Notes under the pieces: generated by a model
The model's input: only the letters and a program-made list of their open reading frames with translations
Told to the model about the DNA's origin: nothing
The model's database searches: none
Shown here: piece by piece, positions 8,932-52,541 of the stretch
How positions within the stretch are numbered: the stretch's first letter is position 1
How the letters are laid out: each line of letters opens with the position of its first letter
Program-made: the position numbers and the translations under genes
Sequence record: PQ351811
Strand: one strand, 5' to 3'
DNA: 64,000 nt
From: Shigella phage SSG23

Positions 8932-9387
8932 ATGATTATTGATACTGTAAAGGGCGATCTCATCGCCCTGTTTAAACAAGGAAACGGTCATTTAATTCAT
9001 GGTTGTAATTGTTTTCATACTATGGGCGCTGGTATTGCTGCGGATATCGCAAAAGAGTTCCCGCAAGCGTTAGAGATTGACAAGCAAACTTCTCGCGGTA
9101 AGGTAGAAAAGCTGGGTGGGTTTAGTGTCTGGACGCATCAAGTTAATGGTTATAACTGGTGTGGGGTGAATCTCTATACCCAATTCCGACCGGGTCCAAA
9201 TGCTGAATATAGTGCTATCCTGAAAGGATTTGAGTCTCTCAATGATGTTTTTGAAGGTGCTATACAGCCTTTCTATATTCCTAAAATCGGTTGCGGTATC
9301 GGTGGCCTTGAGTGGGAATGCGTAGAAGAAATCATTAATATTGCTACTCCAGATATCAATATTGTGGTGGTTGAATATGGCAAATAA
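8932..9387 (+). CDS. macro domain protein, TARG1/DarG-like
   Basis: Motifs HGCNCFHTMGAGIA and IPKIGCGIGGLEWE match TARG1-type macro domain signature; GAGG-TTTATATTATG start. Confidence 0.75.
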   Translation: MIIDTVKGDLIALFKQGNGHLIHGCNCFHTMGAGIAADIAKEFPQALEIDKQTSRGKVEKLGGFSVWTHQVNGYNWCGVNLYTQFRPGPNAEYSAILKGFESLNDVFEGAIQPFYIPKIGCGIGGLEWECVEEIINIATPDINIVVVEYGK

Positions 9388-9571
9388 AAATGATCTATAT
9401 TCCGGCGATTGGGTTAAACGTCAGACTGTAGAAAACGTAACTTGTTTTCGTTGTTTCACTGAATACAATATAAAAACCGCTCCTGTTAGTGTTCCAAAGA
9501 CAGACGGGTATTATATTAAAGAACCGCATTGCCCTAAATGTAAATGTCGATTATATTGGAGTCATCTATGA
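9377..9571 (+). CDS. small Cys-rich (zinc-ribbon-like) protein
   Basis: Track ORF 9341..9571, ATG 9377; CFRC...CPKCKC. Confidence 0.5.
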   Translation: MANKNDLYSGDWVKRQTVENVTCFRCFTEYNIKTAPVSVPKTDGYYIKEPHCPKCKCRLYWSHL

Positions 9572-50619: not shown

Positions 50620-50633
50620 TTAATGAGGTGAAT

Positions 50634-51152
50634 ATGTCAGAATTTAATTCTTGCGCTGGTCTGGTTAGCGACGAAACTATGTCTAAAGCTGGTATTGCGT
50701 ATTCCGAGGCAATCACTAGCGGCAAAGATCCGCTGCAAGTAATGTTAGATATGCAAAAAGGCTTACAGGTCGCACTAGCTGATAAATTTGAGTGGGTGCC
50801 GCATCCTGATAAGCTGGAAACTTGCGGGGAGATCCTTGATTGGATGAAGTTGTGGGATGACGCAATCGACGACGAGACACGAGAACTTTATGTTGCCCTG
50901 GGTGGCATGTCAAATGGCAAAGATGCAAGCGCAATTACTAAAGTGTGGAAGAAGAACCACGGCGAAGCACGAGCGCGTAAATTTGCTGATCTGTCAGATG
51001 ACGATAAAATCGAAATTGCGATGGAATTGATCGATATCTGGCATTTCGTGCTGATTAAAATGCTGGGCTTAGGTTTAACCGCTAAGGATATCTTCAAGCT
51101 GTACTACCTGAAAAATGCTGAAAATTTCGCCCGTCAAGAACGCGGCTACTAA
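50634..51152 (+). CDS. 56: gp56-like dCTP/dUTP pyrophosphatase (MazG-like)
   Basis: KDPLQVMLDMQ, HPDKLET, ELIDIWHFVL, KLYYLKNAENFARQ resemble remembered T4 gp56; adjacent to gene 61 as in T4. Confidence 0.65.
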   Translation: MSEFNSCAGLVSDETMSKAGIAYSEAITSGKDPLQVMLDMQKGLQVALADKFEWVPHPDKLETCGEILDWMKLWDDAIDDETRELYVALGGMSNGKDASAITKVWKKNHGEARARKFADLSDDDKIEIAMELIDIWHFVLIKMLGLGLTAKDIFKLYYLKNAENFARQERGY

Positions 51153-51159
51153 AAATTAG

Positions 51160-51188
51160 TTGACACTACTCTATAATGGTTTTATTAT
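51160..51188 (+). promoter_or_regulatory. sigma70-like promoter with leader hairpin
   Basis: TTGACA-17-TATTAT; leader GCCTCC-CGTCGAAAGATT-GGAGGC + TTTTTATT sequesters the SD. Confidence 0.55.
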
Positions 51189-51220
51189 GCCTCCCGTCGA
51201 AAGATTGGAGGCTTTTTATT

Positions 51221-51724
51221 ATGCAATTCACACCAGAAGAACTTAACATCATTGATGAAGTGATGAACTCTAAAGAAAATATCGATATGTCGATCCTTAA
51301 TGGATTGATTGAAAAGACTGAACGGTTAGTGCATCACGAAGCCTTGTATCGCGGTGTGAGCAAAAGAGAAGGCCGTAAGCTGGATACCTTAATTGTGGGT
51401 GATTCTTTCGTTGTAGAGCGTCCTATGAGCTTTACGCCACTACAATCAACAGCAGAGGACTTTGCAACCGATGTTTATGCAACAGGAAAGATTATTGCAG
51501 TAAAACCTACCAAGCCTTGCATGAATTATTACGAACATGCTATAGACCGAGTGGTGTCTAAAGAGTATGACAATCCGACTACTCGACTGTCTTTGTATGC
51601 TATGTTGGCTGATGAGCGCGAGTGCATATACAAGACAGGGACGACCATGATCCTTGATGAGATCGAGGAAGTTTACGCGTGCAATGGCGACCTGATAGAG
51701 ATTTACAAATTTTCTTTAATTTAA
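51221..51724 (+). CDS. candidate ADP-ribosyltransferase (ModA/ModB-like)
   Basis: Possible R-S-ExE triad: ALYRGV, SFTPLQST, DEIEE, with ART-like spacing; position matches T4 modA/modB region. Confidence 0.4.
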   Translation: MQFTPEELNIIDEVMNSKENIDMSILNGLIEKTERLVHHEALYRGVSKREGRKLDTLIVGDSFVVERPMSFTPLQSTAEDFATDVYATGKIIAVKPTKPCMNYYEHAIDRVVSKEYDNPTTRLSLYAMLADERECIYKTGTTMILDEIEEVYACNGDLIEIYKFSLI

Positions 51725-51727
51725 GTG

Positions 51728-51756
51728 TTGACAGCACAAACCAGATAGACAATAAT
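51728..51756 (+). promoter_or_regulatory. sigma70-like early promoter
   Basis: TTGACA-17-AATAAT; leader ACACACATACCAACTAAGGAGAATCAATTATG. Confidence 0.65.
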
Positions 51757-51785: not shown

Positions 51786-52541
51786 ATGAAACTGTTTGCT
51801 TTTAAATCTAACGAAGAATTGGCGCTGGTTGTTTTCCGTTTGAACTCTATCATGGCTGGCGCTTCTCGTCGTAACAAAGACTTCTCTATGAGCTTAGTCA
51901 CTGTGCGTAACATCTATCGCCAGACTCATTGCGCATATTCAGGTGAGGCGTTCGGTGAAGGTGATGATGGACTCTCCTTAGAGCGCATTGATTGCAATCT
52001 GGGCTATGTTGATGGCAATGTGATTCCGGTTAAACTGAAATACAATTCTTTCCGTGGTAATCACACTATCGAATCTCTTAAAGAGATCCAGGAACTAGGA
52101 ACTAACGGTAAACTTTCTGATGATGAGATCGCCCTACGTGCAAAGTACATCGAGTGGATCGAACTTAACGAGAATCGCATCAAGAATCAGGAAATGGCGA
52201 TTGAAGAAAAGAAATTAGCGGTAGAACGCCACAAAAAGCACAATGAACCGGAGAAAGCAGAGGCAGCAGAGAAAGCAATTAAAAACACTCTCTTCCGTAT
52301 GGAAGAACGTTATCAGAAAATTGCAGATCTCAAGCAAGCCCTTAGCGAAATCAACAAGAAAGAGGAAAAACTTAAGGCTATTGCAAATAATACCGAAATC
52401 GTGCTAAAATATACCAGCGTTTTGATTGAATCTCTTTCTAAGTATGAGAACTTAACGCCAGCACAAAAAGAACGCGTGAAATACGGGCTTCCGATTGATG
52501 CGTCGTGGATTGAATTGATGAAAGCGAAGGTAGGTTTATAA
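51786..52541 (+). CDS. hypothetical protein with degenerate HNH-like motif and coiled-coil tail
   Basis: HCAYSGEAF...LERIDCNLGYVDGNVIPV..N resembles HNH_3-type motif lacking some catalytic residues. Confidence 0.55.
   Translation: MKLFAFKSNEELALVVFRLNSIMAGASRRNKDFSMSLVTVRNIYRQTHCAYSGEAFGEGDDGLSLERIDCNLGYVDGNVIPVKLKYNSFRGNHTIESLKEIQELGTNGKLSDDEIALRAKYIEWIELNENRIKNQEMAIEEKKLAVERHKKHNEPEKAEAAEKAIKNTLFRMEERYQKIADLKQALSEINKKEEKLKAIANNTEIVLKYTSVLIESLSKYENLTPAQKERVKYGLPIDASWIELMKAKVGL

Follow-up and report, generated by a model that had tools for sequence, protein, structure and literature searches.

Analysis of a 64,000-nucleotide stretch of Shigella phage SSG23 (sequence record PQ351811; the whole stretch is called the window here) places a gene for a predicted mono-ADP-ribosyltransferase (ART) of the Mod family, whose open reading frame (ORF) starts at position 51221, directly behind a compact cassette in which an early sigma-70-type promoter abuts a GC-rich hairpin. 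We consider it probable that this is a ModB-type ART expressed from a promoter-terminator cassette of the promoter-early stem-loop (PeSL) type, with the hairpin blocking read-through from upstream and the gene's own messenger RNA made without it. Judged from the promoter geometry, the hairpin most probably precedes, in large part, the point at which the gene's own transcription starts, and it would act on transcription arriving from upstream, not on the gene's own mRNA. Neither of the two components is new. By sequence the gene is the already annotated modB of RB49-type phages, so that the ART assignment is not a discovery, and the hairpin has stood as a predicted terminator since 2006 and carries that annotation in two GenBank records.

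The preliminary description of this locus had read GCCTCC, 12 nt and GGAGGC followed by a T-run, with a GGAGG Shine-Dalgarno (SD) sequence inside the stem, and the letters agree with that reading; the 12 nt between the two arms are not a loop but a 3-bp inner stem closed by a GAAA tetraloop. The structure has a minimum free energy of -15.0 kcal/mol (z = -4.6, with one of 200 shuffles as stable), and folding with 111 nt of context gives it as the centroid structure too. Its likeness to an intrinsic terminator, proposed at the same time, is borne out by the GC-rich stem, a stable GNRA tetraloop and U5AUU directly after, and by the TransTerm terminator 'modB<--56' of phage RB49 (9430-9453, 100% confidence, 10-bp stem; Nolan et al. 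2006 supplementary tables), which alignment carries to 51189-51212 of the window. GenBank holds a 'terminator' feature at the hairpin in the Ec_Makalu records, and one is also listed under the match in TB34. Unlike an ordinary intrinsic terminator, this predicted one overlaps the start region of the next gene's promoter and its SD. The stem is retained with compensatory changes in relatives whose ART is 75, 62, 49 and 39% identical; the fourth outer pair is U-A, C-G or A-U among them, the C-U mismatch becomes A-U, and four of five relatives have a GAAA or GAGA tetraloop (AAAC in relative L008). A covariation test on six sequences, to which scans of viral and metagenome contigs added almost no extra diversity, gave 93% of cells paired against 33-58% with slid partners, which suggests that the stem is maintained by covariation, six sequences being short of statistical proof although the trend is unambiguous. 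A search of the region against Rfam returned no family at E <= 1. The SD additionally contains GGAG (51207-51210), the sequence recognized by T4-type RegB, an endoribonuclease that inactivates early mRNAs; a regB gene is present in RB49 (PMC3014915), and RegB cleavage could add a shut-off step for the ART mRNA.

The promoter is what determines how this hairpin is to be read. The match TTGACA-N17-TATTAT agrees with the consensus at 11 of 12 positions and is, together with the srd promoter, the best in the 7 kb scanned; the record of phage GEC-3S annotates the same two boxes as minus_35 and minus_10 signals. The preliminary description had placed the start of its finding at 51160, which is the first base of the -35 box, and had missed the promoter itself. 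The -10 box reaches to 51188, with the stem starting at 51189. This position is conserved as TATTAT, TATGAT, TATAAT or TATACT in relatives down to 39% protein identity, and in every relative examined the box lies 0-2 nt from the stem. In RB49 the early promoter Pe:9496 (9446-9496, minus strand; hidden Markov model (HMM) score 11.3; Nolan et al. 2006 supplementary tables) corresponds by alignment to 51146-51196, and the 'nucleotide 0' at the 3' end of the HMM match maps to 51196; the RB49 early-promoter consensus is said to agree with the mapped 5' ends of RB49 early transcripts (Nolan et al. 2006). Because the -10 box abuts the 5' arm, the predicted start at 51196 falls inside the hairpin, at its eighth base and just past the 5' arm, which takes up positions -6 to -1. 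Another candidate -10 box, TATAAT at 51172-51177, was rejected: only 6 nt separate it from TTGACA, no -35 box pairs with it, and its conservation does not extend to phage JSE or relative L005.

Two kinds of transcript would thus meet the same bases in different ways. RNA polymerase arriving from the upstream 41-61-56 unit would transcribe the full hairpin with both arms, and its transcripts would end at the U-run; any RNA that read through would have GGAGG locked in the stem. Polymerase from the cassette's own promoter would start at about 51196, past the 5' arm, and since such transcripts lack that arm, the hairpin could not form in the gene's own mRNA, which would carry an open SD on a 25-nt leader and would escape termination. 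ART synthesis would in this way be tied to its own early promoter alone. Termination efficiency is a predicted quantity here, and so is translational masking; the computed energies fit the latter. In the read-through RNA the SD has a pairing probability of 1.00 by partition function, the highest of the 19 promoter-gene pairs in the window, and opening the ribosome site is predicted to cost 13.3 kcal/mol, against a predicted 3.2-4.1 kcal/mol in RNAs starting at 51194-51197. The RNA from 51196 is less structured than its own shuffles. With the 5' arm upstream of the predicted start, this RNA unstructured and no Rfam match, the element would not belong to the leader-RNA classes of attenuator, riboswitch or thermometer. 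The earlier proposal of attenuated or conditionally translated expression therefore stands only in so far as translation would depend on the promoter used; the gene's own mRNA is predicted to be unhindered. The positions of these elements, and of the other features mentioned below, are collected in Table 1.

Table 1. Features of the ART locus and of other loci discussed; positions are those of the window unless a sequence handle is given.
Feature	Position	Strand	Basis
-35 box TTGACA of the early sigma-70-type promoter, after A/T-rich taaaaattag	51160..51165	+	11/12 match; within RB49 Pe:9496
-10 box TATTAT, 17-nt spacer	51183..51188	+	promoter scan; GEC-3S annotation
Predicted transcription start (G)	51196	+	promoter geometry and RB49 HMM match
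Hairpin GCCUCC-C-GUC-GAAA-GAU-U-GGAGGC	51189..51212	+	fold, covariation, TransTerm, GenBank terminator features
Outer stem	51189-51194 with 51207-51212	+	
Inner stem	51196-51198 with 51203-51205	+	
GAAA tetraloop	51199-51202	+	
SD GGAGG, 9 nt before ATG, most of the 3' arm	51207..51211	+	sequence; ribosome-binding site annotated in Ec_Makalu_003
U-run TTTTTATT, terminator tail and SD-AUG spacer	51213..51220	+	sequence; T5-6(A/G)TT kept in relatives
Predicted Mod-family arginine-type (R-S-ExE) mono-ART, 167 aa	51221..51724	+	homology, predicted fold, dN/dS
Catalytic codon R44	51350-51352	+	
Catalytic codon S70	51428-51430	+	
Catalytic codon E132	51614-51616	+	
Catalytic codon E134	51620-51622	+	
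Gene 56 homologue (dCTPase / NTP pyrophosphohydrolase)	50628..51152	+	PHROG 173 at 6e-32; dCTP pyrophosphatase in Krischvirus records
Second early promoter TTGACA-17-AATAAT, before srd	51728..51756	+	promoter scan
srd	51786-52541	+	PHROG 1400 at 9.8e-74
Macro-domain protein, 151 aa	8932-9387	+	Pfam Macro at 7.6e-7, above cut-off
T4 modB leader	L003:3380-3413		
Other mod leader sequences	L017, L018, L019, L020, L021, L022, L023, L025, L026		

That the ORF (ATG at 51221, stop at 51722-51724) encodes an ART, as had been proposed, is upheld by several independent comparisons. The identical protein is named 'RNA polymerase ADP-ribosylase', 'ModB ADP-ribosylase' or 'ModA or ModB ADP-ribosyltransferase' in GenBank; the ORF matches PHROG 832 ('RNA polymerase ADP-ribosylase') at 1.2e-20, and BLASTP aligns it with T4 ModB at 33% identity across residues 2-113 (1e-10) and with T4 ModA at 23% identity over the full length (1e-6). 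Searches against NCBIfam and Pfam gave no family match, the Pfam copy searched being without the PF26816 model; the precomputed Pfam label PF26816 (Mod_ADP_RT) stands on relatives of this ART at 38-98% identity. A sequence search of the Protein Data Bank (PDB) with the ART found nothing, which leaves no solved Mod structure for a sequence-based comparison, and the PADLOC defence models gave no match. A word-indexed protein search yielded three relatives, and an exhaustive HMMER search of 1.84 billion representatives yielded 21 clusters at E <= 0.001; the Mod ART family is, as far as these searches reach, small and phage-restricted. An upstream ATG at 51176, which would give a 182-aa ORF, was discarded as the start: it lies inside the promoter spacer/-10 region, has no SD, and the database records all start the coding sequence at the equivalent of 51221.

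The catalytic residues can be placed by alignment. Eight positions are invariant in the 22-sequence family alignment: M1, K18, R44, G45, S70, F81, E132 and E134. R44, within LYRG (Y43-R44-G45), aligns with R73 of ModB and R72 of ModA, and ModB R73 is required experimentally for ADP-ribosylation and RNAylation (PMC10468400). The S-x-S/T motif is S70-F71-T72, of which S70 aligns with the catalytic serine of both T4 enzymes, and the ExE motif, the signature of arginine specificity that is expected where the strand after the ARTT region begins, is E132-R133-E134, aligned with the EQE of ModB (171-173) and ModA (163-165). The preliminary description had sketched an R-S-ExE arrangement and had picked the YRG and SFT correctly; its third element, an EIEE at about residue 150, gives way to E132-R-E134, as the conservation of residues 147-150 (EIEE) is limited to the closest relatives. 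Fold prediction, named beforehand as the check on the ART call, returned an ART fold and not another one. The AlphaFold2 model built on a 21-sequence alignment is a confident compact ART fold (predicted local distance difference test, pLDDT, 94.1; predicted template modelling score, pTM, 0.87) with R44 on strand 42-45, S70 on strand 69-72 and the ExE just before strand 135-137. With Foldseek against the PDB, the best 50 of 111 matches at E <= 0.001 are all R-S-E ARTs (probability 1.00; query template modelling score, TMq, <=0.62), Certhrax, VIP2, CDTa, C3, iota, HopU1 and ExoS/T being among those listed. Among predicted viral structures, ModB and ModA models match the ART at template modelling (TM) scores of 0.85-0.93 (phage CBH8 ModB 0.91, Sf22 ModA 0.85). 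The ratio of nonsynonymous to synonymous substitution rates (dN/dS) against relatives is 0.05-0.14.

The protein would accordingly be expected to resemble the T4 enzymes in what it does: a predicted arginine-specific R-S-ExE enzyme dependent on nicotinamide adenine dinucleotide (NAD), it would modify host transcription or translation proteins early in infection, like T4 ModA/ModB. It shares with them homologous sequence, the R, S and ExE residues, the predicted fold, the slot between gene 56 and srd and an early promoter in front, and it differs in that the Krischvirus window holds one mod gene against two in T4. Which of the two it corresponds to is another matter. In a trimmed alignment it is 26% identical to ModB and 24% to ModA, and a neighbour-joining tree places it in its own clade with five metagenomic relatives. 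With 24-26% identity to either paralogue and a separate clade, the GenBank label 'ModB' is, on these comparisons, a best-hit name, from which the targets (RNA polymerase alpha, or the S1/EF-Tu/trigger factor and RNAylation of ModB) are not to be inferred. It also has 167 aa against 200 and 207 for T4 ModA and ModB, and about 30 N-terminal residues of both are absent. The Krischvirus enzyme appears to stand in a third, short Mod clade and may act on targets other than those of ModA and of ModB.

As a class of DNA element, the cassette has its closest counterparts in RB49-type phages. About 50 PeSL cassettes were described in RB49 and phi1 (Arbiol et al. 2010, PMC2839356); in reporter assays other PeSLs showed strong promoter activity, and the stem-loop 211/210 acted in vivo as a terminator comparable to rrnB T1 (PMC2839356). 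The ART cassette resembles them in being an intergenic, AT-rich stretch with a consensus sigma-70 promoter and a stable stem-loop followed by an SD and ATG, and its hairpin directly after the -10 box fits the PeSL subclass 'downstream of the -10'. It differs in that its 3' arm is the SD, which is seen in no other promoter-gene pair of the window, and in lying in the conserved replication/early core and not in a hyperplastic region. The most distant relative examined, L010, whose ART is 38% identical, has a separate SD after the hairpin and T-run, which argues that termination is the primary role of the hairpin and that in the window phage these bases have been put to a further use through the SD overlap. 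At least ten further PeSL-like cassettes were seen on the + strand of the window (at 1202, 7051, 18806, 22031, 22942, 24177, 40088, 42113, 44842 and 57442), and in most of them the loop of a G-tract/C-tract hairpin contains the -10 box.

At the RNA level, the nearest known systems are the T4 genes e, soc, 49 and I-TevI, whose long upstream transcripts carry both arms of a hairpin and are untranslated, whereas a nested promoter yields transcripts devoid of the 5' arm, which are translated (PMC3014915). The ART cassette shares with these a predicted pairing of the SD in long transcripts and a promoter start predicted within or after the 5' strand, and the predicted difference of about 10 kcal/mol between its two RNAs is of the size that accompanies the effect of about 100-fold reported for T4 gene e. 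The differences are that the nested promoter of the T4 genes is a late one (TATAAATA) and delays expression, whereas the early sigma-70 promoter of the ART cassette would confine expression to the early promoter, and that the ART hairpin also bears a U-run and would be a terminator too. It would then work like the T4 hairpins while being of a different class. A late-promoter origin of the read-through was considered and rejected, as no TATAAATA lies nearby: the motif does not occur beyond 10.7 kb of the window, nor within 40 kb of the cassette.

The explanation first proposed for the locus places the hairpin in the ART gene's own 5' leader, where it would attenuate transcription or gate translation as a sensor or safety catch on a toxic enzyme. 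A stable hairpin with the SD inside and a U-run at its end, conserved with covariation, is what such a device would look like, and Tiemann et al. are said to have reported in 2004 that ModA and ModB are toxic when cloned. Against this, the only good promoter ends at 51188, directly before the 5' arm, so that a start upstream of the arm needs another, distant promoter; the abutment of -10 box and stem is kept in every relative examined, and the published promoter model sets the start at the eighth base of the hairpin. It would also be self-defeating for a promoter to have all its transcripts terminated 25 nt downstream, and the region has no Rfam family. We regard a hairpin acting in the gene's own leader as improbable. 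A role mainly at the DNA level, with the cassette as a PeSL recombination hotspot for the insertion, deletion and swapping of cassettes and with RNA effects secondary, is a stronger candidate, although still a doubtful one. PeSLs have been proposed as sites of modular shuffling, and RB49 and phi1 were shown to form mini-circles (PMC2839356). The gene content around the ART shifts exactly at the cassette, as that shuffling model predicts: in phage JSE a homing endonuclease gene is inserted directly upstream, on the opposite strand, with the cassette intact from TTGACA to ATG, and relatives L009 and L010 carry Mom-like and N6/N4-methyltransferase genes that replace gene 56 upstream of the ART. 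Additionally, 51160-51223 of the window differs from L004:634-697 at 2 of 64 nt, whereas the adjacent ART coding DNA is 70% identical with a synonymous divergence (dS) > 2, a near-identity that points to either very strong constraint or a recent exchange of the cassette. On the other hand, compensatory changes in the stem indicate that a folded single strand, and not plain sequence identity, is under selection, and the U-run and the SD overlap make sense at the RNA level only. Recombination at the cassette is moreover compatible with a promoter-terminator function and no replacement for it.

A different doubt concerns the protein, which might be a degenerate or non-catalytic molecule with an ART fold, such as a binding protein or decoy. 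Its short length, the missing N-terminal region and the lack of a match in NCBIfam or in the Pfam copy searched could be taken in that sense. The R, S and ExE residues are nevertheless invariant family-wide, purifying selection is strong, and the confident compact model sets R44 and S70 on successive strands and the ExE at the start of a strand; a non-catalytic protein seems very improbable to us.

Several observations weigh against the preferred combination of a ModB-type ART with a PeSL-type, read-through-blocking cassette. The ART stem is C-rich and then G-rich (GCCTCC...GGAGGC), whereas the usual PeSL has a G-tract and then a C-tract, and the commonest PeSL stems span or precede the -10 box; this cassette is a candidate member of the approximately 51 RB49 PeSLs of Arbiol et al. 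The start at 51196 is a prediction from promoter geometry and from an HMM match of modest score (11.3). In RNA from that start the SD still has a 0.64 probability of weak pairing, a pairing that opens for only about 3 kcal/mol. The hairpin was passed over by a simple terminator scan, whose 3-8 nt loop rule takes no account of the interrupted stem. Finally, the protein in question lacks the N-terminal residues of T4 ModA/ModB and sits in a separate clade; both its enzyme activity and its targets are predicted ones.

The comparison was extended to other T4-like genera, where the leaders of the first mod gene were folded one by one (MAFFT lost register for L010 and Potts1), namely those of T4, JS98, S16, a Mosigvirus, a Kanagawavirus, PM2, Potts1 and three IMG/VR genomes. 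Together with the window phage's group, the 11 first-mod (modB-type) leaders cover nine genera (Tequatrovirus, Dhakavirus, Gelderlandvirus, Mosigvirus, Kanagawavirus, Mosugukvirus, Marfavirus, an unassigned group and Krischvirus) and two unassigned contigs. In these 11 leaders a hairpin has its 5' arm overlapping the -10 box or directly against it and GGAGG in its 3' arm, which usually also holds the AUG; the hairpins reach -15 to -25 kcal/mol (z -3 to -8), and in the leaders folded from T4 and the other phages just named the early promoter is GTTTACA-N16/17-TATGAT or similar. The bases between SD and AUG vary by genus (CUAUC, UCAU, UCUAUC, UCAUC, CCAU and AUACUAAC), and changes in the 5' arm match them. 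The modA-type leaders were unstructured in six of six cases. For RB69 a terminator is predicted just upstream of modB (Nolan et al. 2006 supplementary tables). A review of post-transcriptional control in T4 names only e, soc, 49 and I-TevI for this type of control (PMC3014915), and a promoter-nested SD hairpin of modB was not found described in the searchable literature, the older T4 literature being outside the reach of the search. We give an even chance to the proposal that an SD-masking hairpin set on the gene's own early promoter is a family-wide control device for Mod ART genes in T4-like phages, T4 included.

The surroundings of the locus are those of an RB49-like phage. Over a 2-kb query around it, identity is 100% to Shigella phage SFHK24 and 91-99% to 57 further Krischvirus genomes, among them RB49, phi1, GEC-3S and JSE; by this nucleotide identity the window phage is a Krischvirus, that is, an RB49-like T4-type phage. 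The local gene order is helicase 41 ... primase 61, dCTPase 56, the ART ORF, srd, Y01A (dda.1), dda and dexA, which is identical in order and direction to that of T4, where modB and modA take the slot of the ART ORF; the position of the ORF at the T4 modA/modB site, claimed in the preliminary description, is thereby confirmed as exact synteny. Gene 56 is the final gene of the 41-61-56 replication unit, and its transcripts enter the hairpin; the intergenic space upstream of the ART ORF is 68 nt. No hairpin was found between the ART gene and srd, either by reading the sequence or by the cassette scan of the window, so that ART transcripts should run on into srd, Y01A and dda, and the cassette would divide the replication unit 41-61-56 from an ART-srd-dda unit. 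The N-terminal part of the srd homologue also has weaker matches to HNH endonuclease families (PHROG 3118 at 2.2e-12).

A functional pairing of the ART with a TARG1-like macro domain at 8932 had also been suggested, and it finds no support. The macro-domain ORF lies 42 kb from the ART gene, and its best matches are to the macro domain of the DarG antitoxin (NCBIfam 1.1e-13; PADLOC 5.1e-15). Macro domains of the DarG/TARG1 type remove ADP-ribose from DNA thymidine or from acidic residues and do not act on the arginine linkage that ExE-type ARTs create, whose removal is the work of ARH/DraG-type hydrolases. A candidate role for the macro-domain protein in counter-defence against host DarT DNA ADP-ribosylation is more plausible than a partnership with the ART.

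For the annotation of these phages little is changed, as the gene was already known, and the hairpin has been a predicted terminator since 2006, in a class of cassettes described in 2010. The correction of the catalytic motif to E132-x-E134 is useful for the design of mutants. The hairpin itself is re-read as an insulator: placed before the predicted start, it would be expected to keep upstream transcription out of the gene and to leave the gene's own mRNA unthrottled. A compact arrangement of this kind, with the 3' arm of a terminator doubling as the SD, may be of interest for phage genome engineering and for insulated expression cassettes. The modB hairpins of the other genera are a modest lead. 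If confirmed, they would provide an early-gene example of a control so far documented for genes with late promoters, and they would bear on the dosing of the RNAylating enzyme ModB during infection; were the device indeed family-wide, T4-like phages would make a toxic host-modifying enzyme only from transcripts of its own promoter.

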